A stretch of 64,000 nucleotides of DNA from an uncultured Chloroflexia bacterium. Its GTDB lineage: Bacteria > Chloroflexota > Anaerolineae > Anaerolineales > UBA11858. A program made the translations under genes and the position numbers. Shown piece by piece: positions 7,609 to 51,249 of this stretch (position 1 is its first letter; every line of letters starts with the position of its first letter). The stretch covers positions 56,712-120,711 of the forward strand of contig CAWGOD010000001.1 in assembly GCA_963824175.1 (NCBI GenBank). The letters are read 5' to 3'. The notes beneath the pieces were generated by a model. That model did no database searches. It was not told the origin of the DNA and was given only the letters and a program-made list of their open reading frames with translations.

Positions 7609-10600
7609 TTACGGCACTAAAAACGTTCCTATTACCGGGTCATGATCGGATTTGTGGATAAACCCTTCATCATCTGAGAGGGGCAGGGGGAAATCAGCGT
7701 TGCAGTGCAGCACATAAACCTCTACCAGGTAAGCTTCCAAATTTTCATTTACAAGGATATGATCCAGTACCTGGGAGGATCCCTCATAAATATAACTGTA
7801 GCGTTCTTCTGGTTCCAGCCAATCGAAGAGATTGATCAATCCGGAGTTTTCCAGGGTTTGCAGGGGCAGCGATCTGTAGTAGGAATTCAAATCACCCATC
7901 ACAGCCAGCAGGGCTCCGGGGTGCTCTTCCTGAATTTCCTGTGCGATGTCGGCGTTCCAGGCGGCTTGGGCATTACGCCGTGGTTCTGTGGCCTTTTCAC
8001 CACCACTCATACTCGTGAAGTGATTATTTAGGAAATACACGCTTTCACCTGATCCTGCCAACTCGACTTCGATCATCAGAGGAGGTCGGCTGGTGATATT
8101 GCCGGGAGCAGGATACTGGACAATGCTGATGATCTTAGCTTGATCTCCGCGCACCAAATATCCCACATCAATGCCGCGGCTGTCGGTCCCTTCTATGAGA
8201 GCTGCCTGATAATCATACTCAGCCAAAAGTGGATCGGCAGCGATATCCTCCAGGATCTCTAGGTTCTCAACTTCCTGGAAGCCTATCACAGTGGGCAAAC
8301 CTGCGGCCTGGATGGTCTGGGCCACCCGCGAGATACTCAGCTTATATTCTCTTACCTTTGGCAGCGGAGGACTGCTGGGATGGGGGACTACAAAGTCAAA
8401 CAGGTTTTCCACATTCCATGTCATAACACTGAATTTACCTGTCTCCAGGGAGTCTAAGGGGATGATTTCCGGGAGCTGGTTCTGAACAGCATAGGCTGCA
8501 GTAGGTTCGATCTTGTAATTGCCGAAGGAGATAGGACAAAACGCCCACCAACCCGGAGACTGTATCGCCTACCGCAGTAAATACTTCCTGATTGTCCCTG
8601 TTTTCATATGTTTCGCTGCTGCCATCATCCACAAAGATCAACATGCCTTGATCCTGACCCTGCCAGACGCGGGACACATCATGTTTGGGAAGAACTATTG
8701 CATATTCTCCATAGCGCGTGGTTGGACCCACTACCAGTGCAGAACCAGTTACAGATACAAGGCTGCCTTCCAGGGCTTCAAAATAAGCCTGGCTTTCAAT
8801 GTTATCTACTGGTGGATCCAGGGCCGTTGGGACAGGAATGAAACTGCTTCCGAGAACGACAACATTAGCAGGGGAGGTGATATCCAGCTGGGTTTGCTGG
8901 AACGCTTCCCGAACGCGGCCGGTAACTGAAACCAGATCTCCGGGAGCAATCTCGGGCATATTTGGACCTGTGCTGATGAATAAACCTGGAGATGTATTGG
9001 GATCATTATCTGTTTGAAGTTCCTGGATCCAGAAACCTTCTAGGTCTGGAAAGATTCCGGTGACCACACCTTCCGTTGTGATAGTGGATAGGATATAGGG
9101 AGAGCTGGATTCATTACCCTGGACTGCCCAGATAGGAACGGAGTCTCCTGAGAAGGTGTAGGTTTCAATTCCTCCAGCAGCTTCTTGGTAGGTATCAGAG
9201 ACAACCTGGTAATTACCGAATCTCACAAACTCGGTGCTGCTTTGCAGTTTTGCCTGGAATTCCAGGTTGATCATTTCTCCATTGCCGCTTATTTCCGGGA
9301 TCTCCCAGATCACAGTGTTCCCTTCTAAGTAGCCGTTATTCTGGATATCGGTCACTTCCAGTTGGGAATCAAGAGGTGCCTGGACGACCAGGTTTGTATC
9401 ACGATCATCTCCGCGATTGATCACTGTGTAGATCACATTGAAAGGATCTCCAGGGCTAGCAGTCGTGGGTGGCTGGGCTTGGATATATAAGCCTGGGGGA
9501 TAAATTCTGACCAGGTCACTTTGCAGCCTGGGGTACAATCTCAGATTCCCGTCCAACAACTCCATAATGCCTGTGATCTGATAATATTGGTCGGATTCTA
9601 TCTCTTCAACAGTGATGCCGGTTTCTTTATCGATATAAAGAGACACCAGGTTGCCGGACTCATCAAAGAGATCGACTTCAAAGCTGTAAGTCATCTCTTC
9701 CACACGGGCTATCCGACCCTCGACTTCGACCAACCGCCCCGGGAAATATTCAGGTTCAGTGTTGATCGTATCCAGAGCCGTTTGTTCTGGTGTTTGGAGG
9801 GAATCCTTGTTTCCAGGCTGGATGATTTCAATCAGATCTTCTGAGGAAGGGATGAGTTCGATCGAATCCCGATATAACTCAATTTTTCCACGTACCTGGA
9901 CCCTGGATCCTAGCGGGATCACAAGTGAGTCTCCTGCGCCGGAGACGTAAACTTGGACACCGCCGCTTTCATCCTCAACATAAAATTTGGCTCCGCTGCC
10001 AGCATAAAATCCGCCCACATACATTGTGCTGAATCCTTCAACGACCACTTCTTTGTCAATTAACTCCCTGGCTGTGCTGATAGGGATAGCCCCGCCTCCG
10101 ATCTCACCATGAAATGGAGCTGCAAAGGCAGGCAGAACCCAGTTTCCAGCTTCAAGATAGACATTGCGGAACGTATATCCGCTGAATGTAAACTCGGCCT
10201 GGAGCGGAATGGAGCCAATAAAAGTTTCACCATCCTCAATGGAAGATATTCTGGTTGTGATCAAATTGCCATCTCGCTGGAACCCTTCCCCGTTTTCCTG
10301 GAGGAGGATATGATCCGGGAGGGGGATGGACAGAAGGTTATTATTCAGATCCTTTCCTGTTTGATTATGGATTTGGAATTCAACTGTGAACTCATCTCCA
10401 GGATTGACCTGATAAGGGAAGCTCACATCGAGCTTTAACAGATCTGCTAATTCGTGATTGTTGGAGCTGCCGGTGTTCACCAGAGATGGAGAGCTGTTGA
10501 GAGAAAAATCGATACTGTTGTCATCCGTGTCTCCGCCCCCGCTTGAAAGAGTTTCAGGAGGGCGCTGCAAGGAAAACCCCGGCTCCATTTTTACAGCGGG

Positions 10601-35109: not shown

Positions 35110-36346
35110 TTATCCGCAGCCGCCACCAACAGGTGCTCGTTTTAGATCTAGTTCGATTTTCTTTTCATATTCAAAATGATATTCATCATGATCGGGATAG
35201 GCAGCCGGGCAATTCGATCCCAACGCGGCGTCGAATTCATAATGCAATTCTTCTACGCCGGCTTCAGTAGTATCTCCGCATATACCTTCTTCATAGGGTG
35301 TCGAAAAGGTATCCAACCAATTGTTGATCCCGCCGCTGAGGATATACACATTCGGGACCGCCTGGGCGGTCAATGTTTTCCAGACCTCAGTAGAGGTCAC
35401 TTCGTCATTGCTCATCACCACAAACACTGTATTGGCCGGCATGGCAATAAAACTCATCTATTGAATCTGGAATTTCTTCAGGTGTGATATTCTCGGCGTC
35501 AAGCAGGTGGAACAGATTATAGTCGGCTTCGCTTCTGACATCGATCATAACCAGGTTGAGTTTGTGGTCATGAAAAGTATCCAGCAGCTCGCCGGGATGG
35601 ATGTATACTTCTCTGTTTTTTAGGTCATCGCCACGGACTGATTCCAGTTTATTCCAGCGATCTGCAGTGGTGGGTTGGCCGATTATCGCGATTGCGATTG
35701 CTACGATCACCAGCACACCTGCGCCATAGTAGCGGGCTTTGGGGGCTTTTTTGGGATCCTTTTTTCCGTAGATCTTTTCCAGCTGTTCTCCACCCCAGAG
35801 CATGAATACTGCCATCAAAGTTACCAGGATGACAACGATCCCGGTCCGAAGGTTGAAGACATCCATCAAGGTTAATCTGCCGTAGTAGCTGCCGTTGAAG
35901 AAAAACTTGTATAAATCGACAGTCTCACCAAAGATGAAAACACCAACCAGGCCGCCCAAGACAAAGAAGATGCCATCGATCTTTAACGTTGCCAGCGCGA
36001 CCAGAGAAGTGCCGGGACAGAAACCTCCCAGGATGAAACCAACACCCATGATCAATCCGCCAACAATGCCGGACCAAAGATATGTGGGGTTAACCCAGAT
36101 CAGATTGTAGTCCAACAACCCAACTGCAGAACTTAGGAATAGCAGCAGCATACCCACAACGATTGCTGTGAAGAATACTTTGAACACACGCAGATCTTTG
36201 AAGTAGAACTGGGATGCCAGGCTGGGGGAGTGATTAAAACCAGAGATCTCCAGAACATATCCGAATAGGAATCCGATCAATAAAAAGACCAGATATGTTA
36301 GAGGTTTACTAAGTAAGGATTCTAGATGAAGGGGAAAGGGTATCAT
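35110..36346 (-). CDS. YeeE/YedE-family (sulfur-transport domain) membrane protein fused to a rhodanese-homology domain; frame break near 35440
   Basis: GFILGGFCPGTS motif in the TM half. The rhodanese-like LVMIDVRSEADYNLFHLLDAENI ... VFVVMSNDEVTS ... ILSGGINNW has no Cys in the active-site loop. The C-terminus is APVGGGCG. Confidence 0.7.
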
Positions 36347-36358
36347 TATTTTCTCCTA

Positions 36359-36929
36359 TTAATTCCACAGCCTGCGAACAAAATAGGCCAGAGCGTAGGC
36401 ACCACCGAAGATGGAAAACATTACCACCCAGCTGCCGGCGGAAAGTGTGGCTCCACCGGAAAGAGCTTGTCCGGAGGTGCATCCACGAGCCAGGCGAGCG
36501 CCGTAAGTGAAACAGATCCCGCCCAAGAAAGCGAATAACCAGCGGGTCTGATTGGATATATTGGGACCTTTATGAGTTTCAAATTTGGTCCGACCGTGGA
36601 TCACACCGGAAGTGAATCCGCCGATCAATACACCGGCGGTCACGATCACGATCCAGCTGTCCAGAGGATTCAGTTGACCACCAGCCATATTGATCAGATA
36701 GGGGACCTGGTCGATATGTCCGGGAGCGATTAGATCCTCGATGAAGGCAGCAATGCGGCTGAGTACCGCCGGAAGCACCCAATCCATTACCGGTGATGAA
36801 ATAAGAGGCAAATAGAACCATGCCCAATAAAACACCACCAAGATAAGGATTCGCATAAGGCTTAGAAGGCCTGTTGAACAGATCCTTCAAACGAAATTTC
36901 TGTTTTTCTGGTTTTTGATTTTCTGTCAT
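36359..36929 (-). CDS. YeeE/YedE-family membrane protein (half-size partner); frame break near 36780
   Basis: N-terminus PYLGGVLLGMVLFASYFITGNGLGASGG and C-terminal half ARGCTSGQALSGGATLSAGSW. Confidence 0.7.
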
Positions 36930-37003
36930 TTCTAGTCTCTCTTTTCTAGGCGGAGTTTATAATCTGCCATTTTTTTACTTGGAAAATACAATTCGATTGA
37001 GAT

Positions 37004-37603
37004 TAACTCTCAATGTCCTCCCAACCGGTGATCATAGCTTCAATGCTGGAAACAGCAGTATGACCGGTTGTAGTCAGGTAGATATGCAGGATCAGGAAAG
37101 CTGCAAACAGCCAGGCAATGATGGTATGGAAGGGAGCCAGGATGGGCAATCCTCCCAGGCCTTTCAGCCAGACCAGGCCAGCGCTGTAAACCCCACATCA
37201 GGGCGCCAGTGATGCCCTGAAGAGGTAAGAGCACATTCAGCAGCCCGAAATAGGTGATCTGCTGGAGAGGATTCAACTTCTTGTCAGTTGTTTTTTCAAA
37301 GGGGTGATGTTCACCTTTGAAGATACCCAGCAGGTAGTATTTGATCTGTACAAAAGTGCGGTCAAAGAAACCACGCGGTCGAGGAATATACTGCTGGATC
37401 TCTCCTGTAGCTAGATGGAAGAACAAGGACAGGAAAGCATTGACAGCAAGAATTGCTGCGATGATGTTGTGGACCAGGACCATATTCCTGAAGTTCATAA
37501 AAGCGAACGAGTCGGGCCTGTGGATTATGAATCCGGTCAGCAGCAGGATCACAATCGCCGCTGTTTGCAACCAGTGCCACAATCGCTCATAAGCCCCGTA
37601 CAT
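37004..37603 (-). CDS. Cytochrome b (Ni/Fe-hydrogenase / PhsC-type, PF01292-like) membrane subunit; frame break near 37150
   Basis: YERLWHWLQTAAIVILLLTGFIIH. The C-terminal piece PFHTIIAWLFAAFLILHIYLTTTGH...ITGWEDIES is in another frame, ending at stop 37004-37006. Confidence 0.7.
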
Positions 37604-39740
37604 ATAAATTTTCTTTGTTGGTTTTTGATGAGGCAGGATTGCGGGAAGAAAAATAGATTCTTAATCCGCCATGGGTCATCACACCCAGGAAAACAACAGC
37701 ACACAAACCTAAACCGATCCAATCCAGCCAGGCAAGGCGATTGTGGCCAAAGACATACAGCGAATCGGCCGCTGCTGCTGGATAATAGAAAATCTCTCCA
37801 TCATCATTAAATTTGATCTCACCTTCTAGATTTCTCTCGGTGCCCGATACAAAAGCTGGCAAGTTACCTCCAGGGGAGGCGGCAGCTAGTTTGATCGGTT
37901 GTGTGATCCGGGAATCATCACCATGGCAAGCAGTGCAGTCATCCAGGGCCCAATCTGCGCTGGCAACATCATGATTAATGCTGTAAGGCTGAATCTCTCC
38001 CGTGATCCGGGGATTGGAAAGCCCCAGTAGAGCCAATCTGTCTCGTACAAAATCTTCTTTGGCCTGGGAATCGATCACCATTTCATCGACGGTCAAATCT
38101 CCATCTTTATTTTCATCAAATCTCAGGATAATTCCTGGGTGATAACCGCCATTTTCGTAATAGGCGGCCTGCAGATCGGCCAGGATCACAGGACGGGGAG
38201 GATCACCGTAGACCCAGAACCAGGTTGTGATCAGGTTATGGGGCGCTAATCTCATGTTGCCGTCAATATCTGGGCTGGGGATTAATACTGGTTCAAAACC
38301 AACCAGTAAGGAACCCATTGTGTTTACATCACCTTCGGCTCCACGGCATTCTCGCCGGGGAAGGTCTCCGGGCAGCAGTACTGTCCAGTCATGGACCTGG
38401 TTGCCTGATGAATACATTTGAGGAATGTGGCAGGACTCACAGCTCAGAACGTCCAGATGGCTTTCGAGATACGGCAGCCAGTCATGGGTGCTGTCTGACT
38501 GTATGGCAGGACTCACAGGTCCTCATGGTGTCATTGAGTTCAGGAGCTACGATACTCTGGGCGCTGTTTCCCCGAGCAAATTGGTGGAGAGGTTTTTCCA
38601 GGTATTCACCGATCTCGACCCGGCGAGGATCGAACAGCAGGTGATCTGGCCTGGTTGTCTCTGATTCCTGGTAATAGAGTGGGTTGTTAATCGAATAATG
38701 GCAATCCACACAGTTCAATAAACGTTCTGCGTGTACATCCCAGGATCGATTTAGAGTTTCTTTATTGGCCAGGTTCATCCCTGAATCGGACATCTTTTGG
38801 GGTGAGATGATCTGTCCAGTCGTGATCGTACTCCAGCGTTCAGGGGCGCAGCCCAGTGTAACCAGGGGATCCTCAACATTATCATGCACAAGACCATGAC
38901 ATGCTCCGCAGTTGTTATTGGTTGGATCCTGGATCTGGATCGCTTCTGGAAGGATTTCCATGTCTTCGTCAAATAAGCTTTCATTCCAGATGTAGGAATC
39001 CCCGCTCATAGATAACAATACCTGAGCCGATCAGAGTGGAGGTGTTGACCCATTTGAAATTCCCACTTTGCAGGGCGTCTGCCCGAGCATTATTGTCTGG
39101 ACTCGGGATATGGCACAGGAAGCAGTTCATTTCAACTGAGCCAGATTTATCCCAATCCCAACGTTCCAACTTACCAGTATCCGGGTTGACGATATTGGTT
39201 TCCAAGCTGGTGCTGCTGTAAGGTAGATCAGCCAGAAGTTCTCCGTTTTTGGCATATATGAGCAGGACCGCCTCCGATATGGCGTAATCCATAGATCTGG
39301 ATCCATGCTGGAGTGGTCAGGTCTATCCTGTCATCACCCTGGGGTGAGAGGTAGCGATACTCAATTGAGTTCCAGGAACCAAACACTCCTGGGGAGGTAT
39401 CCCAGGGTCTTTCTGTAACTGTTTCACCTGGTTGGGAGATATCATTTAACCCAACGCTGACATGGTAACTGTGGTCAGCAATGAATGCTGTGTCATGACA
39501 TGCCCCACAGGTATTCATTGTGGAAATTGGATTGCCTGTTTCCAAGACATTATCCCCTGCCTCATCGAGGAAAGGGAAAGAGGGGTGCAGGGGAGAGGCT
39601 TGTTCGGTTTTTTCCTGTCCCGGGCTCGCCCAGACAACTCCCTGGGTTAGAAGGACAGCACCCAGGATGATCAGGAAAGAAATTGCTGTTATGAGGAGCA
39701 ATTTATTATATTTATTGAGTCGTGTTATTTGATTGCCCAT
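37587..39740 (-). CDS. Multiheme c-type cytochrome (at least seven CxxCH) with an N-terminal signal/anchor and a C-terminal TM segment; three frame breaks
   Basis: CxxCH motifs seen in order: CGACH, CFLCH, CGACH, CVDCH, CESCH, CESCH, CTACH. Four ORF pieces (39228-39740, 38981-39292, 38482-39018, 37587-38516) tile the region. Its 3' end overlaps the cytochrome b start by 17 nt. Confidence 0.75.
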
Positions 39741-39757
39741 ATCAACTGCATCCTTTA

Positions 39758-41210
39758 TTAGGGTCGATAACTATTGGACTGGAAACGGCCGCCCCAATCG
39801 ATCGGATCACCGTAATATCCCAGTGATTCCCAATCCATCCTGCCTTCAGGACCGTGGCATTGATCACAAGTCAGAGCTTCCGTAGCTGCTCTGACCATGT
39901 GCGTGGTTGGCCAATACATATCCGTTTCAGTGAAATCCATATTGGCCGCTGTAATCCAGGCCGGTGATATCTGCACCGAGCTGAAGGGCTAAATCCCAAT
40001 CGAATTCGGTCCAGAAACCTCCCTCGCCAAAAGTTTTTGGCTGGAGAAGGATATTATTTACAGTGTCATAAGGTTGTTTGGCAGTATGAACTTTGAAGGG
40101 AAAAACTTGGAAGATTGATCATGTGATATCACCTGCTGGCAGGTTTATGTGCACCAGCTGATCCGGATCGATCATATCTCCCAGGATATAACGTTCGGCT
40201 ACGCCGCCGTTGTACCACATGTAAACCGGAGTGAAATTGCCTTCGTATACAAAACTGCCTTTGATCTTCAAATAAGTATGAACGCTTTCCTCAATCTCAT
40301 CGCTGCCCGCTGTTGACCAATCCCAGTACATCTTGGTTGCATCCCTGGTTGCCGCATTTGGAATGTGGCAGGTCTGGCAAGCAACTGACTCAATATGGGC
40401 ATTGATGCGGTCATCCTCGTGCAAGCCTTCGTCATGGCAATCAATGCAGTAGGTCTGGTTTTCATTATCCAGGCTGACGGAGATCGATCGTCCCATAATG
40501 TTGTGGCTTTCTGTCTGGTGGCAATCAGTGCACATAAAGTCATGTTCACCCATATGGATATCCACATTGGAAGGCGGGAAGTAGAGGGTTTCATCCAGAT
40601 CACCATGTTTAACCGCATTACCTCCGCCGCCATTAAAGTGGCAGCTGCCGCAGTTTTCACGGGTTGGAGCGGCGACGCTCTGGGCGACTTCCAGCAGGTC
40701 TACACCTTCAACCGGTATGCCGGCCAGGCCTTTCACGTATGTGCCGGTATTATCATGGCATGCCAGGCAATCGACAAATTCTTCCTGATTGAAGTCAAAA
40801 TTAGCATCTTCCCATCCATAACCTGCATGACAGGAGGTGCAGCTGGGCCAGTTGCCCTGAATTCCGATACAGAAATTGTTAATCGAGTTCTTTTTCCCGA
40901 CTGTGACAGTGTTATCTCTACCTTCTATCTGATAGGGTTTGCTTTCCCAGGTCCAATGTGCTGTTGCCATGATTTCCTGAGCTGAATCTTCGTGGCATTC
41001 CAGGCAGGCCCTGGTGACTTCTTGACCGGTTTCAAAAGGGCCCTCAATGATCGCTGTGTGATCGGTGTGGGGGACTTTTAAAGGCACATTATCCCAGGGA
41101 TCCGAACTGATCGGCTTTTCTCCCCGGGGGAAGAAGATCACGATTGGGATCACAATTATAAAAAGGACAAAAACGGCACCAAATATCCAGTTGAATTTGG
41201 ATGGTTTCAT
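39758..41210 (-). CDS. Tetrathionate-reductase-family octaheme c-type cytochrome (OTR family); two frame breaks (about 40120 and 39960)
   Basis: Eight CxxCH motifs: CLECH, CTSCH, CLACH, CGSCH, CTDCH, CIDCH, CQTCH, CDQCH. Strings such as ATAHWTWES, NNFCIGIQGNWPSCTSCH, NCGSCHFNGGGGNAVKHGD and VHTAKQPYD match my recollection of the OTR family. There is an N-terminal TM anchor. Confidence 0.75.
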
Positions 41211-41213
41211 AGA

Positions 41214-41568
41214 CTACCTCTCATTGGATTGGTTATGTTTAATTAGATCAGCTTGCTGTGATAACTGGTCCAGCATAACCTCGCGGAGTATGTCCAGAGC
41301 TTGAATAAAACGTTTATCAGCCAGAGAATAGATCACCTGGGCCCCATCGCGCTGTGCCTGGATCAATCCCCTCTCGCGGAGGACTTTTAAGTGGCGTGAA
41401 GCCGCAGATTGACTGATACCCACGATCTCTGCCAGATTGTTCACATTTTGGGGTGTTTCAGCGACAGCATATAATTAATAATATCCGATTAGGTTCTGAA
41501 ATTGCGGAGCAGATCCTGGCATGCAGCTGATTGATTTCTTGGGCAAGGGGATTATTGTTCATAGACAT
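41214..41568 (-). CDS. ArsR/SmtB-family transcriptional regulator; frame break near 41450
   Basis: LHARICSAISEPNRILLI followed by NVNNLAEIVGISQSAASRHLKVLRERGLIQAQRDGAQVIYSL. Confidence 0.75.
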
Positions 41569-42901: not shown

Positions 42902-44134
42902 TTAATGTGCTGCCTCTTCGTCTTTGGGGTAGATTGGCAGGTACTTTATGCCAAAACTGAAAGCAAGCAAAGCGTAAGCGATGATACCGATGGAAACTAT
43001 GATCTCATTCCAGGTAGGCAGGTAGGAAACTGTGATCAAATTGCCAAGTACACCCGGGGACCACTGTGGCGGGGCGACCAATCCAGAGAGGGTTACATTC
43101 CAGCGATTTACTGTTACTCCTGCGATGATTGCTCCCAGCGCCAGCATCGTATAGCGATCATTTTTCCTGAAGTTTGCATTTAGCAGGATGATGGCCGGTA
43201 CGAATGCCGCCCAACACGATCTCAATCCACCAGAAGGTTCGGGTATAAGGAGTGGTTGATTGCAGTAATGCCAGAGCCTCGGTTGTACCGGGAGAAGTGC
43301 TGTAATAGGAAGTAGCCGCCCAATCCCAGATCTTTAGATAAAGGTAGGCCAGAAGGGCATATCCAGCGAAGCGGGAGATATCATACTGCAGTTCCCGGCT
43401 GATAATTTGCCGTCTGTTCAGTTTGCCGACGAAAATGGTTAACAACAGGGTCATGGATATCCCTCCGGCAATAGCGGAGAGAATGAACATCACCGGCAGG
43501 GAAGGTTTGTACCAGATAGCTCTTCCTGACAACACGCCGTATGTCGCTCCCAGGGAGGATTGATGGAGCAGGGATAATCCCAATCCGATAGCGGCAAAAA
43601 CAGGTGATGCCTTGTGGATCAGATCACCATACTTACGAAGATTAGGCCAGCGGTCAAAATATTTACCCTCGAGCAGGATCGGTAAGAATTCCAGCACAAG
43701 CACGATGGAATAAAGGATCACACACCAGGTGATTTCCCATAAAACAGAGTGAACATTCCAGTAAACCAGGGGATGCCAGAACCTGTCTGGCCGGCCGATA
43801 TCCATGGCCAGGGCAAGCATGGCGGATGTATACCCAAGGAATCCCACAAAAACAGCGGCACGGGCGATGGGTTGGTATTTTTTGATCCTGAACAGGTAAA
43901 CAATTGCCGAGAATGTGAACGCACCGGCTCCTGTTGCGATAGAACTCAGGTCCTGGGTGATCCACAAGACCCCAGGGGACCTGGTCAGACAAACCAGTCA
44001 CATGCAAACCTTTGACAAAAACCCGGATGGCGCCGAATACTACCAACGGCGAGCATCAAACCAAGAACACCGATCCAGATCCACCAGGCACGCTCTCGGC
44101 CTTCTTTAGGAATGGAAAGATCAAATTTAAACAT
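42902..44134 (-). CDS. NrfD/PsrC-family polytopic membrane quinone-interacting subunit; about three frame breaks
   Basis: MFKFDLSIPKEGRERAWWIWIGVLGLML..., GLSDQVPWGL, and MDIGRPDRFWHPLVYWNVHSVLWEITWCV. The ATG at 44134 directly abuts the upstream stop (TAGATG). Confidence 0.75.
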
Positions 44135-44978
44135 CTATACTTCCTCCTTTTCAGGGCGGACATAATGAACATTGGGTTTTGTCCCAAAATCCTCCCTCAG
44201 GCGGAAGGTTTCATTATCTTTAACAAAAATAGAAACCGGACTTTCTGGATCATTATGATCACCAAAAACACGGGCGTTCACAGGACAGATATTCACACAT
44301 GCTGGTGTGGCTTCCCGGTCAACTCCCGGCGTTAATCCCTGGGCCAGCCCGCGATCGATTCTGTGACTGCAGAAGGTACATTTTTCCACCACGCCCCGGG
44401 ACCGGCGCTCAATTTCCGGCGATCCCCAGGTGGGTTGATAGGGATTTTCTTTTTTGGATAACTTCCCAGTTAAACCGCCTGACATCATAAGGGCAGGCAA
44501 CTTCGCAGTAGCGGCAGCCAATGCAGCGTTTGTAGTCCATGGTGACGATGCCATCTTTGCGCTTCCAGGTCGCACCGACTGGACAGACTTTCACGCAGGG
44601 AGCTTCTTCGCAATGCAGACAAGGGTCTGGTCATAAAAAACTCTGTTCCGCTTTCAGTACGCTCGGGATGTCCCACATTCCAGCGCATGTCATCATCAGG
44701 AACATCATTGGTTGCCTGGCAAGCCCAGAGGCAGTACTGGCAGCCGATGCATTTGCTGAGGTCGATAGCCATACACCAGGAATGTTCGGATTTCCCTTCT
44801 TCGCCATGGGTTTTTTCGCCAATACCTTGGATCGCATCTGGGGACAGGGGTCCCGATGTGATCAGCTGAGTGACCAGCGCTGCTGCACCTGTCGACCCGG
44901 CGATCTGTAAAAATTCCTTTCGTGATACCAGGGATTTCTTATTAGTAGATTTTCCAGAGATCCCTTTTTAGAGATCAT
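44135..44978 (-). CDS. Periplasmic four-cluster [4Fe-4S] protein (PsrB/NrfC/HybA type) with a Tat-like signal; about three frame breaks
   Basis: [17 protein letters not shown]; [11 protein letters not shown]; [14 protein letters not shown]; [12 protein letters not shown]; CTFCSHR...[18 protein letters not shown] precedes the ATG at 44978. Confidence 0.75.
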
Positions 44979-46001
44979 TTTCCTCTTCCTCCTCATCTGT
45001 CCGACTGCGAAGATTCTGGCCCACGAACCAGGCGGTGCTTCCGCCCAGGACTAGGCCGATCACAGCACCCTGGAATAAATTGCTTACCGGCTGCTGGCCA
45101 GGGCAGTCTCCAGGGCCTGGATCTGCTGGTTGGGATATCTGTCGATTGTTTACCGAATGGTTTCTGATCAGCGGCTGGGCGCCTTCGTCCTTTCTTGCCC
45201 TTCATCTGTGTCCTGCGCATGGAATGTTGCATCAGCAGCCCCATTTTCATAACCGGGGAGAGTAAAACCTGCATGTAATGCGTCTGTATGGCAGGCAACA
45301 CAAGTTTGAGGTGAAATCGTGAAACGCATGCCCAGTCGGTACAATGCCATCTTCAGGGCTAACATCAGGTGGAATTACTAGGGCATGGCAATCCACGCAT
45401 CCGATATTTTGCTGAACGTGAAGGTCGTTCAGATAATCGCCCATTCCTTCCCGGTGGCAGTTGATGCATAAATCATCGGGATTATCAAATAAGTGGTTTC
45501 TGGCTGTGGGGATCATGGCAGTCCATGCAGTCTACATCTCCAGAGGCGTGGCCTGTACTGCGCCATTCACTCAAAGTTGTTGTATGGCAGGAACCGCAGT
45601 AATAAGTATCAACGATGGTTGGTACCACCTTGATCGGGGTGATTAGTTGTGACAGTACCGTGACAAGATTGGCAAGAAACACCCTCATGTTTCATATTCT
45701 CCAGTGGATGAAATGTAATTCGTGGTATGGCAGGCCAGGCAGGTATCCGGAGTGCCCAAACCAACCCACTGCTCCTGGAAAACAGGATCATCATAGGCAT
45801 GGGCATGGGGGCTTGGAGACCAAACTCCCTGCCACATCTCCGATGACATTTTACACAATCATTGTCAGTGAGAATTTCTTCAGGGGGATCATCACCTTGA
45901 GAATTGGGTGCTGCCGAGACAATTCCAGTGAACAGGAACATGGCAAGTAATCCAATAATTAGGCCGGATACAAGGGCAGGGGAATACTTTCTTTTAGTCA
46001 T
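44968..46001 (-). CDS. Octaheme c-type cytochrome with signal peptide and C-terminal TM helix; at least six frame breaks
   Basis: CxxCH motifs found by frame-hopping: CVKCH, CLACH, CQSCH, CGSCH, CMDCH, CINCH, CVDCH, CVACH. The tail GAVIGLVLGGSTAWFVG...EEEEENDL has a stop that overlaps the next gene's start by 11 nt. Confidence 0.65.
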
Positions 46002-46533: not shown

Positions 46534-47487
46534 ATGGTAGATTTGCTGCGTATCGAAACCTTTTTGCATGCAGCCGAGACCTTGAATTTCTCGGAAGCTG
46601 CCAGGAACCTCCATTTATCCCAGCCTACTATCAGCCATCATATTAAAGCTCTCGAGAATGACCTGGGAGTGATTCTGTTTGAACGCCAGGGCTCTTCCAT
46701 CAAACTTACCGATGCAGGCAAATTACTGGTTCCCTGGGCGAGGAGAGTGATGCGAGATTCCATAGAAATGCAAGAGATGATGGAATCGTTAAAGGAAGGC
46801 ATGGCTGGGAATCTCCAAATTGCTTGCAGCACAACGGCTGGAAAGTACGTTCTTCCCCATCTGGCAGCTAGGTTTTCTATCAGGCACCCTAATGTTCGAA
46901 CTAAATTGCTGCGCTGCACTCCAGCCTCGGTTGCTATCAACTTATTGGAAGGAGAAGCTAATCTGGGTGTGGTCAGTTATGAGATTCCCGGAAAGGAAAT
47001 CGAATTGCAGGAATTCTTCCATGATTTGATCGCAGTTATCGTACCAAGAAACCACGCATTTGTGGCCAGGGATAAGATCCTCCCCGAAGATTTATTAGGA
47101 GAATCGATCATCATGCGGGAAGATACATCCGGCACAAGGAAAATCGTTCTGTCTGAACTTGCCAAACATGATATCAGCCTGGATGATTTGGACAACTTTA
47201 TGGAGGTTGGCAATGCTGAGGCCATCGTCCGTACAGTAGCAGCTGGTTATGGGATTTCCTTTGTATCCAAACTGGCGGCTGCATGTGCTATTGAACGCGG
47301 TAATGTAATTGCCATCCCGGTAGATGGGATAAACCTGGTACGTACTATCTATATGGTTCGGAAACGGCTTAAAGAGTCTCATCGACCGGCGGATGCGTTC
47401 TGGGGATTCATCCATGATCCAACCAATAAGGATCTGATTGAATTGGCCAGCAGGGGAGATTTGTCCTATACTATTCGAGATCTATAG
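46534..47487 (+). CDS. LysR-family transcriptional regulator (intact), divergent from the octaheme-FeS-NrfD operon
   Basis: 317-aa ORF with IETFLHAAETLNFSEAARNLHLSQPTISHHIKALENDLG plus an effector domain. Confidence 0.9.
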   Translation: MVDLLRIETFLHAAETLNFSEAARNLHLSQPTISHHIKALENDLGVILFERQGSSIKLTDAGKLLVPWARRVMRDSIEMQEMMESLKEGMAGNLQIACSTTAGKYVLPHLAARFSIRHPNVRTKLLRCTPASVAINLLEGEANLGVVSYEIPGKEIELQEFFHDLIAVIVPRNHAFVARDKILPEDLLGESIIMREDTSGTRKIVLSELAKHDISLDDLDNFMEVGNAEAIVRTVAAGYGISFVSKLAAACAIERGNVIAIPVDGINLVRTIYMVRKRLKESHRPADAFWGFIHDPTNKDLIELASRGDLSYTIRDL

Positions 47488-47578: not shown

Positions 47579-47938
47579 TTAGAAACTAAAGGTAATAGTG
47601 GCGTCTTCGATTTCCATCAAGAAGGGTGGGGCTTTGGTGATCTTGATCCTGTCATCGCGCAGATCTTTGGGATCGATACCTTTGTTTTCAAGTGCCAGTT
47701 CGCACAGGATCATTTCAGCGCCAAGATCCATGATCGTATCAAATAACTCAACAGGATTGGGTAGACCCTTGGGGGTGCCCAGTGTTTCCAGCTCGCCTTT
47801 CAACATCCAGCGGGCGCCGGCGGGACAAATAAACACCACAACTTCATTATCAAGTGCCAGGCCTGAAGACGACATGATCAGGGTGGGCATGATGTTGGCA
47901 GGTCCATCGCCATTGCAGGTAATTGCCATTTTAGCCAT
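47579..47938 (-). CDS. DsrE/DsrF-like (COG2210-type) small sulfur-relay protein
   Basis: 119-aa ORF. VVVFICPAGARWMLKG and MILCELALENKGI are paralogous to the ORF at 49343-49717. Confidence 0.65.
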   Translation of the reverse strand: MAKMAITCNGDGPANIMPTLIMSSSGLALDNEVVVFICPAGARWMLKGELETLGTPKGLPNPVELFDTIMDLGAEMILCELALENKGIDPKDLRDDRIKITKAPPFLMEIEDATITFSF

Positions 47939-48007
47939 TTAGTTAGCTCCTTTTGTTATAGTACAAAGAGTCCGGGAATTTTCATCCCGGACTCTATTCA
48001 TTAATTC

Positions 48008-49015
48008 TTAGTTATCTTTTTTCTGGGGCAGAACAAACATCACATAGGATGCCGCCCACGCGCCCAGGAAGATCGATACACCAGCTAAGATGGATCCCAG
48101 GGAAAGCTGGGGAATACCACTCAGCAGATGGCCGATATTGCAGCCACCAGAGGTTACTGCGCCAAATCCCATCAAAAGACCGCCTGCGAAGGTTTGAAGC
48201 AGGACAAGAGGTTTGGGCATACGGAATTTGAATTCCTTGGAGATCAGAGCGGCAACAAAGCCTCCGACAACAATACCGATGATTAGCATTCCGATCCAAT
48301 TAAAGGTTGCACCTGTGAATATAACCTGGACGATGTTGATCCAACCTGCGGTGATGCCAAGTGGATAGTTACGGCCAGCAGCGGCGGACAGCGGGAAGGC
48401 CAGAATGCCAACCAGGCCGACCAAGATACCTGTGTTCAGCCAGCCCCAACCCGGGTCAGCTTCACATTCTTCATTCTTGGATTTGGCAACAAAGTACCAA
48501 ACCACAACAGCGATCAAAGCAAGGATGATCGCCAGGGTGGTGTAGTCCATACCCAGGATTCCATGCAAGGTCAAAGCTTTGTCATCTGCTCCGGAGATTG
48601 TTGTGGCAGCTTGCAGGTTGGCTTTGAAGGGTTTCAGGAACCCAGAAGCGGTGATATAACCAGCTGTGGCCAGGCCGAGAACTGCAGTCATTGAACCAAC
48701 CATACCTTCACCAGTACGGTAAGTGATGCCGCTGGCACATCCGCCAGCCAGAACCATACCGATACCAAATATAAAGCTACCCAGCAGGTTTGCTCCCCAC
48801 CAGAAAGGTTTGGGGTTGATGGCAATGGCGCCAACTGCATCCATAAGCGCAAATCCGACCAATTCAACCAACAGTGCGGCGAATACAGTTTTCAGGAGGA
48901 CGTTGTCCTGCAGCAGGATAGCGTCTCTGAAGGCTGAGTTCATGCAGAAACGTCCCCTCTGCAGAACAAAACCAAACAAAACACCTACAAATAATCCAGT
49001 TAATACAGCTTCCAT
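48008..49015 (-). CDS. yeeE: YeeE/YedE-family thiosulfate-type transporter (full length)
   Basis: 335-aa multi-TM ORF with three Cys contexts: RGRFCMNSAF, AGGCASGITYRTGEG and SGGCNIGHLLSG. Confidence 0.8.
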   Translation of the reverse strand: MEAVLTGLFVGVLFGFVLQRGRFCMNSAFRDAILLQDNVLLKTVFAALLVELVGFALMDAVGAIAINPKPFWWGANLLGSFIFGIGMVLAGGCASGITYRTGEGMVGSMTAVLGLATAGYITASGFLKPFKANLQAATTISGADDKALTLHGILGMDYTTLAIILALIAVVVWYFVAKSKNEECEADPGWGWLNTGILVGLVGILAFPLSAAAGRNYPLGITAGWINIVQVIFTGATFNWIGMLIIGIVVGGFVAALISKEFKFRMPKPLVLLQTFAGGLLMGFGAVTSGGCNIGHLLSGIPQLSLGSILAGVSIFLGAWAASYVMFVLPQKKDN

Positions 49016-49045
49016 CTCTCTCTCCTTGACTAATTTTTATTGATA

Positions 49046-49294
49046 CTATTTCAATCCATGTGCTTCGATCAGCATACGGTGGTTGGGTCCATCCAATTGT
49101 TCAACTTCGATCAGTTTATGGCCTTGTTTTTTGAGGTTGCGCGGAATCCTTTCCACTGAAAGTGGATAATCCAGCAGCACTTCCAGGACTTCACCCTTTT
49201 CCATTTTTTTCAGTGTGGTCATGGTGTTCATGTCAGGGTAAGGGCAGATCTTTCCACAGACATCCAGGGTTTTAGTGGGGGATACTTCGCTCAT
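49046..49294 (-). CDS. TusA/YeeD-family sulfur carrier protein
   Basis: 82-aa ORF with LDVCGKICPYP (the CPxP motif of TusA/SirA-like proteins). It lies immediately upstream of yeeE. Confidence 0.8.
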   Translation of the reverse strand: MSEVSPTKTLDVCGKICPYPDMNTMTTLKKMEKGEVLEVLLDYPLSVERIPRNLKKQGHKLIEVEQLDGPNHRMLIEAHGLK

Positions 49295-49342
49295 TCGACT
49301 AACTCTCCTTTTTTAATGGATGATGAATTTGAATCCCAATCA

Positions 49343-49717
49343 TTAATAACTAAAGGACATTTTGGCGCCTTCCGCTTCAAAGAGGAATGTTGAGGCCATC
49401 ATGACTTCCACACCTTCAACCAGATCTTCCTCTTTCATGTCCCAGATCGGCAAACCGAGTTCACAGAGGATCACCCGACCGTCCAGGACCTGGATGGCAT
49501 CAAAAAGATCTACAGGATCTGGTTGGCCCTTGAGGTTTTGGTACTTTTCCAGGGCGCCTTTCTTGAGGATCTTTGCGCCGCCTGGCTGGATGAATAACAG
49601 TACTTCATCACCTGTGGCAGCTACAGCTGCGCTCATAACCAGAGCAGCCATGACACTTTGTTCGTTATCGTTGTTCAGTACAACTACAATCTTCTCGGTC
49701 TGGAATTCTTCAGTCAT
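49343..49717 (-). CDS. DsrE/DsrF-like (COG2210-type) small sulfur-relay protein
   Basis: 124-aa ORF with VLLFIQPGGAKILKKG and VILCELGLPIWDM. Confidence 0.65.
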   Translation of the reverse strand: MTEEFQTEKIVVVLNNDNEQSVMAALVMSAAVAATGDEVLLFIQPGGAKILKKGALEKYQNLKGQPDPVDLFDAIQVLDGRVILCELGLPIWDMKEEDLVEGVEVMMASTFLFEAEGAKMSFSY

Positions 49718-49775
49718 CTATATATCCTTTTTTGTAATACTATTTCGTAAATGCAGTTCGTGTTATCTCTAATTC

Positions 49776-50951
49776 CTATTGACTTGCAGGAACTAATTCC
49801 TCTTTAGGCCGTTCACTGATCTCAACCGCTTTCAGCCTGACTTGCTGGAAATAGATCGCCAGAGGTCGGTAATATAGGTGGGCCCATTTTCCAAAGGGTA
49901 CTTCCAGAACCAACATTGGGAAGGCTGCGGCCAGGTGGATCACATAGGTATAGTAGGTTGCCAGAGGCAAACCCAGATACCGGAAGGTATGCTGGAAAAT
50001 ACCTGTCAGGGTCACCGTGATCAAAAGAACGGGGAAGATCCAGTCACTGGGGTGGGAGAATTTATGAAGCGGCCTTGACTGTTTAATCCGTCCTATGATC
50101 ACAGATCCCGCACCGTATAGCAAAACAGCGGTAGCATAGTATCCCAACCAGCGTTGAGGATTGGTGATGGGATAAATTTCATCGGTTTGTAACCAGGGAA
50201 GGAAGAACATTACCAGGACCAGCATCAGACCATAACCACTGGCCATCAGCATATGGTTGATCCAGGGCAATCGTTTGTAGTTCTTTTCCTTTTCATCATC
50301 CTCATCCTCGGCACATTCACTCCATCTCATCTGAGTCAGGAGGTGGAGAACTCCATGCCAGGCTTCAGTGATGTAAACTGAGATCGGAACTTTGACAGCT
50401 GTTCCTTTGCTGATGACCATGTGGTGCATGCGCAGGACATTGGTTCCGATAAAGAAAACCAGGCCGGCAGCCATTATCCAGTCCGCAGTGTGCATCAATT
50501 CCACAGGAGCGAAGGTATTCAGCTCAACGGAGCTGGTTACGATCGGTCCATGAAGAATGACAGCCAGAATAACGATAAAGATAGCTGTAATGATCATGGC
50601 ACCGAACTCCCATAGTTTGGAGGTATAAAACTTGCCAGCCAAGCCGGTCCAGTCATATTGCGCGGTTAACCAGCGCCTGACAGCCATCATGGTCTCACCA
50701 GGTTCGGCTTGCTTTGGGCATGTTAGGGAGCAATCTCCGCAGTAGTAGCACAACCATGGGTCAATGCTTTCCTTGAGGTTATCTTTCAATCCCAGCTGAA
50801 CCATGCGGATCATATCCCTTGGGAAGGGATGATCTGTACTTGTCAGGGGGCAGATCGCGGTGCAGTTGCCGCAGTTGAAACATTTTTCGATATCTACGGC
50901 CCCAAATTCCTTGAGGTCATGCATTAAAGTAGGGTCCACTCGTGTGGCCAT
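49776..50951 (-). CDS. QmoC-like membrane protein: N-terminal HdrC-like two-[4Fe-4S] domain fused to an HdrE/NarI-like multi-TM cytochrome b domain
   Basis: CFNCGNCTAICP and CYYCGDCSLTCP are followed by about six hydrophobic segments carrying His residues. The likely start is MATRVDP at 50951, after a GGAGGAG RBS. Confidence 0.7.
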   Translation of the reverse strand: MATRVDPTLMHDLKEFGAVDIEKCFNCGNCTAICPLTSTDHPFPRDMIRMVQLGLKDNLKESIDPWLCYYCGDCSLTCPKQAEPGETMMAVRRWLTAQYDWTGLAGKFYTSKLWEFGAMIITAIFIVILAVILHGPIVTSSVELNTFAPVELMHTADWIMAAGLVFFIGTNVLRMHHMVISKGTAVKVPISVYITEAWHGVLHLLTQMRWSECAEDEDDEKEKNYKRLPWINHMLMASGYGLMLVLVMFFLPWLQTDEIYPITNPQRWLGYYATAVLLYGAGSVIIGRIKQSRPLHKFSHPSDWIFPVLLITVTLTGIFQHTFRYLGLPLATYYTYVIHLAAAFPMLVLEVPFGKWAHLYYRPLAIYFQQVRLKAVEISERPKEELVPASQ

Positions 50952-50955
50952 ATTG

Positions 50956-51249
50956 TTACTCCTCCATCCGCCTGTAAAGGACATATTCGCCATCCATACC
51001 GTCTTCCCGCACCAGGTCGTATTTCTTTAAAGCTGTCAGGAACCATAAAACACGATGGGTTGGCAGTTCGATCTGGGAGGCAATTGTGGGCACAGTCATC
51101 GATTCATCCTTGATCAGTTTCAAGATCCCTCGCTCGACTTTGCCCTGCTCCTTTAATAGTGCCTGGGTCCGATCTACAGTTTCTTGGTGTTTAGTGCGCA
51201 ACTCCTTGAGGTTCTGAGTTCGCTTTTTTGCTGCTTCTTTATCGCTCAT
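50956..51249 (-). CDS. Small (97 aa) coiled-coil plus winged-helix-like protein, translationally coupled inside the operon
   Basis: Its ATG overlaps the upstream stop (ATGA at 51246-51249), and its stop is 4 nt before the QmoC-like start. The segment MTVPTIASQIELPTHRVLWFLTALKKYDLV looks like an HTH/wHTH. Confidence 0.6.
   Translation of the reverse strand: MSDKEAAKKRTQNLKELRTKHQETVDRTQALLKEQGKVERGILKLIKDESMTVPTIASQIELPTHRVLWFLTALKKYDLVREDGMDGEYVLYRRMEE

Follow-up and report, generated by a model that had tools for sequence, protein, structure and literature searches.

Why would a membrane protein of the YeeE/YedE family carry a rhodanese domain that lacks its catalytic cysteine and yet end in a cysteine flanked by glycines? 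The question is raised by a gene at 35110-36346 on the minus strand of a 64,000-nt window (the whole stretch analysed, to which all positions refer unless another locus is named) from contig CAWGOD010000001.1 of an uncultured Chloroflexia bacterium. The favoured answer, given a probability of about 0.55, is that the tail would be an external covalent sulfur-carrier arm, similar in action to SoxY but not a SoxY, serving both the channel to which it is fused and an octahaem cytochrome of the tetrathionate reductase (Otr) family encoded in the same operon.

A terminal cysteine behind an inactive rhodanese domain

The gene and its parts are as follows, all on the minus strand.

35110-36346, minus: the gene itself, encoding a PmpB-type YeeE half, two further transmembrane (TM) helices, a Cys-less rhodanese domain and a GGGCG tail; 411 aa when read through, two open reading frames (ORFs) in the assembly
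36017-36019, minus: Cys110 in G-G-F-C-P-G-T-S, the putative channel cysteine equivalent to Cys91 of StYeeE (from conservation and a 6LEO/8J4C profile alignment ending at chain residue 92)
35681-35737, minus: residues 204-222, the sixth TM helix, which follows a loop rich in Lys and Arg and is predicted to return the chain to the outside (from model helices, Lys plus Arg counts and StYeeE superposition)
35314-35590, minus: rhodanese-fold domain, residues 253-344 (251-347 in the structure model), with Ser312 (35410-35412) at the catalytic Cys position (from PF00581, the GlpE fold match and the loop alignment)
35449-35452, minus: TTTT run with one extra T, a gene-breaking frameshift absent from relatives and from short-read contigs of runs X2 and X8
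35113-35130, minus: predicted disordered tail V-G-G-G-C-G with the Cys410 codon at 35116-35118 (from model confidence, pLDDT, below 50 for residues 406-411, and conservation)

The minus strand reads GGT GGC GGC TGC GGA TAA from 35127 to 35110, and the terminal Cys encoded there is present in 119/119 close homologues and in nearly all full-length representatives, which end in GGCG, GGC, EGC or GGCS. Cys-tail ends (GGCG, GGC, GGCS) are found in 79 of 80 species-genome loci, and a Cys tail also closes the protein in 62/62 metagenome loci of a distant GGC-type subfamily that is 30-35% identical. G409 and C410 show no variation among 45 orthologues, and both remain at least 90% conserved across a set of 98 sequences with 27-90% identity.

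The sole exception, locus L043 from a Chloroflexi metagenome-assembled genome (MAG; positions 8249-8290 of that locus), has GGG-TGA-GGC-TAA in place of the GGN-TGY-GGN-stop of the other loci. The TGA is followed 13 nt downstream by the start of a GC-rich hairpin (stem AGCCGC/GCGGCU, loop AGGCU), and the same genome holds selB (327 bits, over the cut-off); judged from these features, the TGA probably encodes selenocysteine (Sec) at the arm position. Two further proteins, P0209 (ending in GGGWG) and P0162 (ending in GGG), may be additional TGA cases seen through gene callers. A TGA at the Cys codon of one orthologue argues for a reactive residue. A recent review of selenoproteins includes the G-U-x-S-G motif of YeeE and the Otr family among the sites of Sec, but no terminal-Sec rhodanese form (PMC13188914).

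The domain in front of the tail has a well-preserved rhodanese fold, with PF00581 matching intact orthologues at 46.8-50.5 bits (cut-off 22.2) and rhodanese structures matching at Z 11-12, as seen for GlpE 1GN0 (Z 11.3, root-mean-square deviation 2.6, 105 aligned residues). Its loop reads V-V-M-S-N-D-E-V-T-S, and in the profile alignment Ser312 falls on the catalytic Cys of 6MXV and Thr on the Arg position. Among 92 full-length cluster representatives of 27-55% identity, the loop Cys position is Ser or Gly in 90 and Cys in 2, supporting a rhodanese domain that is catalytically dead family-wide. In these alignments, the dead loop and the tail are conserved far beyond chance. The original prediction had proposed an inactive rhodanese, which the replacement of both Cys and Arg bears out, and a meaningful Gly-flanked Cys at the end, which it would have given up had the motif not been conserved in homologues; that cysteine is a family hallmark, present in 141/142 loci overall (genome and metagenome).

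The same residues could be read as a catalytic cysteine that has moved, the tail folding into the rhodanese cradle and providing its Cys in cis, so that the domain would be an active extracytoplasmic sulfurtransferase, engaged in thiosulfate synthesis or in Sud-like polysulfide chemistry. Such a reading draws on the intact fold, on a terminal Cys as conserved as a catalytic residue and with a possible Sec variant, and on the existence of periplasmic polysulfide-carrying rhodaneses, one of which, 1QXN, is among the matches. It is nonetheless unlikely, given that the loop has also lost its Arg and turned acidic (S-N-D-E-x-x-A/S), that the tail is predicted to be disordered and undocked, and that the two representatives with a loop Cys retain the tail Cys too. 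A third origin for the tail, the Gly-Gly thiocarboxylate of ThiS/MoaD-like proteins, was considered and rejected, since no ATP is available outside the cell, where the domain lies, and conservation falls on the Cys instead of a terminal Gly-Gly.

Between the rhodanese fold and the disordered tail, the AF2 model places a structured extension with Cys356 (35278-35280) and Cys379 (35209-35211). Both are present in 6 and both absent in 38 of 45 sequences, that is, they are gained or lost as a pair in 44/45; this pairing suggests a clade-specific (genus-level) disulfide and is consistent with an extracytoplasmic site.

In the assembly the gene is not a single open frame, since 35110-36346 spans 1237 nt (3 x 412 + 1); the original prediction had placed the motifs correctly and had taken the span for one frame, crossing a +1 frameshift unremarked. 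The ORF list gives two overlapping ORFs in different frames, 35405-36346 (313 aa), which drifts into out-of-frame residues before its stop, and 35110-35457 (115 aa); Pfam finds the Sulf_transp half and the start of the rhodanese domain in the former and the rhodanese end in the latter. With one base of GAG-TTTT-ATT (35449-35455) dropped, the frame encodes 411 aa. More than 100 intact homologues of the same length (69-97% identity; annotated as proteins of Anaerolineales MAGs) align with this product over its full length and without gaps at the junction.

Taken at face value, the extra T in the assembly would make the gene a real pseudogene in the source organism, with a genuine frameshift and no protein made. 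This is improbable: apart from the single base the reading frame is fully conserved, and the error pattern extends well beyond the gene. Five same-genus loci (all that could be aligned) have neither the extra T at about 35452 nor an extra A at about 36764, and these two single-base insertions, both unique to the window, are the only indels across the two channel genes in that comparison. Short-read contigs from two marine-sediment runs (92-97% identity) span both sites and carry the extra base in neither, although these runs come from close relatives, the best sharing 0.27 of words, and speak for the relatives and not for the source reads. Comparison with four relatives gives, between 25 and 45.6 kb, about 28 one-base insertions that set the window apart from all of them (about 1.3 per kb); they are isolated and uncompensated, and they affect neighbouring genes as well as every gene of the operon, each of which is at least one base longer than its counterpart in an intact relative. 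Marker completeness is only 73.5% for the source MAG, although it consists of just 18 contigs. Thus the window assembly appears to carry a systematic insertion error, which probably depresses the completeness estimate too. Because the insertions are ubiquitous across the operon and absent in relatives and in short-read contigs, an assembly artefact is much likelier than a pseudogene; the extra T is most likely an assembly error and the gene intact in the organism. Among the many genes broken by insertions within 25000-45700 are those of Otr, the cytochrome fusion, NrfD and an Fe-S subunit.

The channel half and the side of the membrane

The AF2 model, built from the 98-sequence alignment, has a mean pLDDT of 91.3 and falls below 50 only at residues 406-411. 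It comprises a PmpB-type YeeE half (residues 15-151), extra membrane helices at 168-193 and 204-222, and then a linker helix. The YeeE/YedE profile PF04143 matches at 62.1 bits in the window piece and 61.3 bits in the intact homologue P0002 (cut-off 27), covering profile positions 10-190 of 310. In the structure search, chain residues 1-222 match StYeeE 8J4C_B with Z 9.2, a root-mean-square deviation of 2.9 and 171 aligned residues (6LEP, Z 8.8), a Z that is modest for a helical protein and is backed by a profile match to 8J4C/6LEO at E 4e-6 to 2e-4; the membrane part is accordingly the counterpart of H1-H8 in StYeeE. Cys110 is invariant in the 45 orthologues and at least 90% conserved in the 98 sequences, and its StYeeE equivalent, Cys91, is an essential channel cysteine (PMC7449682).

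A full-length TsuA/YeeE importer has nine TM helices and three conserved Cys in one chain of about 330-350 aa and is partnered by YeeD/TsuB. The protein described here has only the N-terminal half and the H7/H8 equivalents; the full-length importer models NF052577 and NF041049 give it 16-27 bits against cut-offs of 400-645, and no NCBIfam model reaches its cut-off for this protein. PmpB and PmpA are, respectively, the N- and C-terminal halves of YeeE (PMC11582611). The protein resembles PmpB in being an N-half homologue with one Cys and a PmpA-type C-half encoded alongside. Databases label such genes merely "YeeE/YedE family" or "rhodanese-related sulfurtransferase", the second label being misleading for a domain without the catalytic Cys.

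On which side of the membrane the tail emerges can be approached through StYeeE, in which the N-terminus is outside and the H7-H8 loop cytoplasmic (PMC7449682). Mean Lys plus Arg counts across 92 homologues are 0.2 in the N-terminus, 2.7 in the LA-H2 loop, 0.4 in the H3-H4 loop, 1.3 in the H6-H7 loop and 5.3 in the loop before the sixth helix. This alternation fits the positive-inside rule for an N-out protein with six helices, and the C-terminus would therefore be outside. Moreover, the partner Otr is a c-type cytochrome, which matures only outside the cytoplasm, in agreement with an external rhodanese domain and tail. From the charge bias and the StYeeE superposition, both are very probably extracytoplasmic.

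Two parts of the original prediction are changed by these results. It had spoken of a YeeE fusion, and the family holds, but instead of a whole YeeE there is a PmpB-type half paired with an upstream PmpA-type half. It had also suggested that the tail hands imported sulfur to cytoplasmic TusA or DsrE proteins and had proposed a topology prediction; that prediction puts the tail outside the membrane, so the hand-off is unlikely and feeding of the channel from the outside is the likelier direction. No TusA-like gene was found within the operon.

An operon shared with Otr

Upstream of the gene, in the same orientation, lie the following genes.

36359-36929, minus: PmpA-type half-channel (C-terminal YeeE half with an R-G-C-T-S-G motif, profile positions 166-309), broken by the extra base at about 36764
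36997-39760 (start approximate), minus: multihaem cytochrome c joined to a membrane domain of cytochrome b561/PhsC type; about 7 inserted bases break the gene
39758-41210, minus: membrane-anchored octahaem cytochrome of the tetrathionate reductase (Otr) family (from 1SP3, TIGR04315 and CxxCH motifs)
41214-41568, minus: ArsR/SmtB-family regulator at the operon head (from profile matches)

In an intact relative the order is an ArsR-family regulator, a 483-aa cytochrome, a 978-aa multihaem cytochrome-b561 fusion, PmpA and the gene under study. The 483-aa protein is an Otr with an N-terminal signal-anchor helix, matching 1SP3 at E 2e-145 and TIGR04315 at 570 bits (cut-off 375). All eight CxxCH motifs, as well as K106 and C114 (Lys56 and Cys64 of 1SP3), are invariant in 45 sequences; Lys56 is reported, by Mowat et al. 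2004, to ligate the active-site haem. C114 is a non-haem cysteine eight residues past the haem-ligand Lys (L015:14338-15789 and the Otr alignment), and could be where the arm cysteine makes contact. The best NCBIfam match of the 978-aa fusion is PhsC, a thiosulfate reductase subunit, at 132 bits and under the cut-off.

The association is strict among the loci with enough flanking sequence. Where a genome locus extends at least 5.2 kb upstream (55 loci), it has Otr, the cytochrome and PmpA directly before the gene, in the same order and on the same strand (55/55), and an ArsR gene heads the operon in 40 of the 55. These loci come from Anaerolineales, Caldilineales and Promineifilaceae, and also from Lysobacterales, Acidobacteriota, Gemmatimonadota and Acidimicrobiia MAGs. 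In the distant GGC-type subfamily (metagenome loci L111-L178), 26/26 have Otr (about 45% identity), cytochrome b and PmpA, with ArsR in 1/26. In total, 81/81 loci with at least 5.2 kb of flank link the gene to Otr, cytochrome b and PmpA. The cytochrome b of the GGC-type subfamily is without the multihaem extension found in Chloroflexota. As both the multihaem part and ArsR are missing in the distant subfamily, the four-gene core has gained the haem wire and the regulator in particular lineages only, and the core module, as defined by gene neighbourhood, is Otr, cytochrome b, PmpA and the PmpB-rhodanese-Cys protein. The ArsR regulator was also considered as a BigR/SqrR persulfide sensor and was left unassigned (BigR 48 bits against a cut-off of 155; generic PDB matches).

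The structure of Otr has been available since 2004, and its natural role is debated between tetrathionate, nitrite and hydroxylamine. The 81/81 linkage to a sulfur channel with its own Cys (or Sec) arm points Otr toward sulfur chemistry and gives it a specific, testable partner. The arm might instead bind another chalcogen or a nitrogen species, such as selenite or tellurite, or Otr might act as a nitrite/hydroxylamine reductase. Some YedE relatives are tied to selenium transport (weak NCBIfam matches), the regulator has sub-threshold matches to metalloregulators including TsoR, and Otr reduces nitrite and hydroxylamine in vitro (cited in PMC11237559). However, the selenium and metalloregulator matches are all far under their cut-offs, the cytochrome b is closest to PhsC, otr responded to tetrathionate in sediment (PMC8528874) and soxY adjoins otr elsewhere (PMC11237559); a role apart from sulfur thus has little probability.

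Two other sulfur-related gene groups occur in the window. At 42902-45014 (counterparts L015:17473-19581), just upstream of the Otr operon and after a LysR regulator, there are genes for NrfD/PsrC-like membrane and 4Fe-4S subunits of a molybdopterin-type oxidoreductase (polysulfide/thiosulfate reductase-like), which may be a second sulfur-respiration module. About 12 kb from the Otr module, at 47579-50993, lies a YTD-like cytoplasmic sulfur-trafficking cluster, with these genes.

46534-47487: LysR regulator by the cluster
47579-47938 and 49343-49717: two DsrE-like genes flanking the full-length YeeE gene
48008-49015: full-length YeeE gene (PF04143, 263 bits)
49776-50993: Fe-S protein gene

A proposed external carrier arm and its relation to known systems

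In the carrier-arm reading, a heterodimeric YeeE/TsuA-like channel would be formed by a PmpB-type half, contributing the inner cysteine, and a PmpA-type half, contributing the outer one. The PmpB-type chain would cross the membrane twice more through the H7 and H8 equivalents and emerge outside, where the rhodanese fold, deprived of its catalytic Cys and Arg, would serve as a scaffold or docking module for a short flexible tail with Cys last or next-to-last (probably Sec in some lineages). The protein would be one of four obligate partners, together with the PmpA half, the membrane-anchored extracytoplasmic Otr and a cytochrome b that is linked to quinol and, in Chloroflexota, has additional haems. 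When tetrathionate meets a thiol, an S-thiosulfonate forms readily, and SoxY carries this same adduct. The tail thiolate would bind oxidised sulfur covalently, as an S-thiosulfonate from tetrathionate or as a persulfide from other sulfur species. Electrons would pass from menaquinol to cytochrome b and on to Otr, the adduct or its substrate would be reduced at the Lys-ligated haem, and the thiosulfate or sulfane sulfur released would be delivered at the mouth of the tethered channel for import.

A reductive direction seems more plausible than an oxidative one, because the tetrathionate/thiosulfate couple is far more positive than menaquinone, because the bacteria with this operon are mainly known as MAGs from sediment and further oxygen-poor settings, and because otr expression in marine-sediment Acidobacteriota increased with tetrathionate (PMC8528874). 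Independent comparative support comes from lucinid symbionts, in which a divergent soxY/soxZ pair adjoins otr (PMC11237559), that is, Otr is there paired with a classical Cys-arm carrier. The original prediction had the kind of device right, a carrier arm, and misjudged its place, which is very probably outside, and its partner, having missed the link to Otr and cytochrome b.

Docking of Otr (residues 40-483) with the rhodanese-tail part (226-411) gave an interface score (ipSAE) of 0.38, against 0.00 for the best of 3 controls, with the runs agreeing in at least 70% of contacts and partner pLDDT of at least 81. The ipSAE mark was reached by 58/80 solved complexes and 2/110 mismatched pairs, and values of 0.60 or under by only 7/80 solved complexes and by both mismatches that passed, so the modelled support for an Otr-arm contact is weak.

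The weak docking score is one of several points that weigh against the carrier arm. Its chemistry, namely the adduct, its binding and the transport, is inferred throughout. The stretch before the tail Cys is rich in Lys and Arg, and the outer vestibule of StYeeE is itself positively charged, so that entry of the tail into the channel mouth is not favoured; in StYeeE, moreover, thiosulfate is thought to pass by hydrogen bonding to cysteines, without a covalent relay (PMC7449682). The rhodanese loop is acidic (N-D-E) and a poor site for an anion. The reduction of nitrite and hydroxylamine by Otr in vitro (cited in PMC11237559) means that sulfur may not be its substrate. As for Sec, its reading comes from the single locus L043, and an Rfam scan downstream of the TGA there returned no selenocysteine insertion sequence (SECIS) family, only chance matches, bacterial SECIS elements being poorly covered.

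The tail could also act on the channel itself, its Cys reversibly bridging the outer PmpA cysteine by a disulfide or persulfide and thereby gating the channel or sensing external redox or sulfur, with Otr merely co-expressed. A short tail tethered right above the channel, the conserved outer channel Cys (R-G-C-T-S-G), the ArsR-type regulator heading the operon in 40/55 loci and the signalling role of the YeeE-like SoxT1B (PMC11582611) are all in line with such a switch. It would leave unexplained both the 81/81 linkage to Otr and cytochrome b and the docking signal, weak as it is, and the tail is kept in the distant subfamily even though ArsR is found in only 1/26 of its loci; a gate is therefore rather unlikely.

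The carrier arm leads to a bolder and doubtful proposal: that the physiological substrate of the Otr family would be the sulfur adduct (S-thiosulfonate or persulfide) on the Cys/Sec tip of the arm and not a free ion, and that the four proteins would form one membrane supercomplex. If true, the supercomplex would be a minimal importer-fused counterpart of the Sox carrier system, coupling quinol oxidation to the reductive processing and direct uptake of sulfur-cycle intermediates by members of several phyla that live in sediments. Anaerolineae, Caldilineae and further sediment bacteria commonly carry the module, which may matter for cryptic tetrathionate/thiosulfate cycling; a cultured species, Caldilinea aerophila, has the operon too (L063, L076). 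It also touches on how externally made sulfur reaches YeeE-type importers: the YeeE-like SoxT is proposed to import sulfur freed from SoxYZ, which would hand it off (PMC11582611), and an importer-fused arm would be a direct answer. In open-access papers and bioRxiv, no description of the operon or the arm was found, including Otr with YeeE/YedE and the Shewanella otr neighbours (SO_4143/SO_4144).

Among known systems, SoxY is the closest in manner. Like it, the protein has a Cys between glycines at its very end, borne by a flexible tail behind a basic/hydrophobic strand (K-V-x-I/L-G-G-C-G), and it shares an extracytoplasmic site and the company of c-type cytochromes. The SoxY-like arm of the original prediction thus stands as to motif and disordered tail but not as to membership, since PF13501 (SoxY) gives no match to the protein at E up to 1 and the fold is that of a rhodanese, whereas SoxY is an immunoglobulin-like sandwich without sequence kinship. 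A SoxZ partner was not seen; few family members have the SoxY motif GGCGG exactly, GGCG or GGC being found here, and SoxY is free in the periplasm while this arm is fused to a membrane channel.

DsrC, with its penultimate Cys, and thioredoxin reductase, ending in G-C-U-G, have mobile C-terminal redox arms. The likeness lies in a penultimate Cys or Sec on a mobile arm by which sulfur or electrons are shuttled between an active site and a partner, and in the interchange of Cys and Sec; in contrast, those arms use a redox pair and this one a single Cys, the present protein is extracytoplasmic and the folds are unrelated.

With the PmpA/PmpB pair, the protein shares a PmpB-type half (the N-terminal 190 residues) with a single Cys and an adjoining partner half, but PmpB has about 130 aa and four helices, to which the H7/H8 equivalents, the external domain and the Cys tail are added here. 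StYeeE/TsuA (PDB 6LEO/8J4C) is similar in fold over residues 1-222, but its cytoplasmic YeeD/TusA partner is not in the operon. Compared with the Shewanella oneidensis Otr (1SP3; TIGR04315), the neighbouring gene product has all eight CxxCH motifs, Lys106 and Cys114, and differs in being membrane-anchored by an N-terminal helix and always encoded with the split channel and cytochrome b. Lastly, inactive rhodanese homology domains (MKP/DUSP, USP8) also have the rhodanese fold with the catalytic Cys replaced and are used as scaffolds, and Sud, the polysulfide-sulfur transferase, is a rhodanese of the periplasm from which a respiratory reductase receives sulfur, although it is soluble and uses its loop Cys; unlike these, the protein described here retains a reactive Cys that has been shifted to the C-terminal tail.

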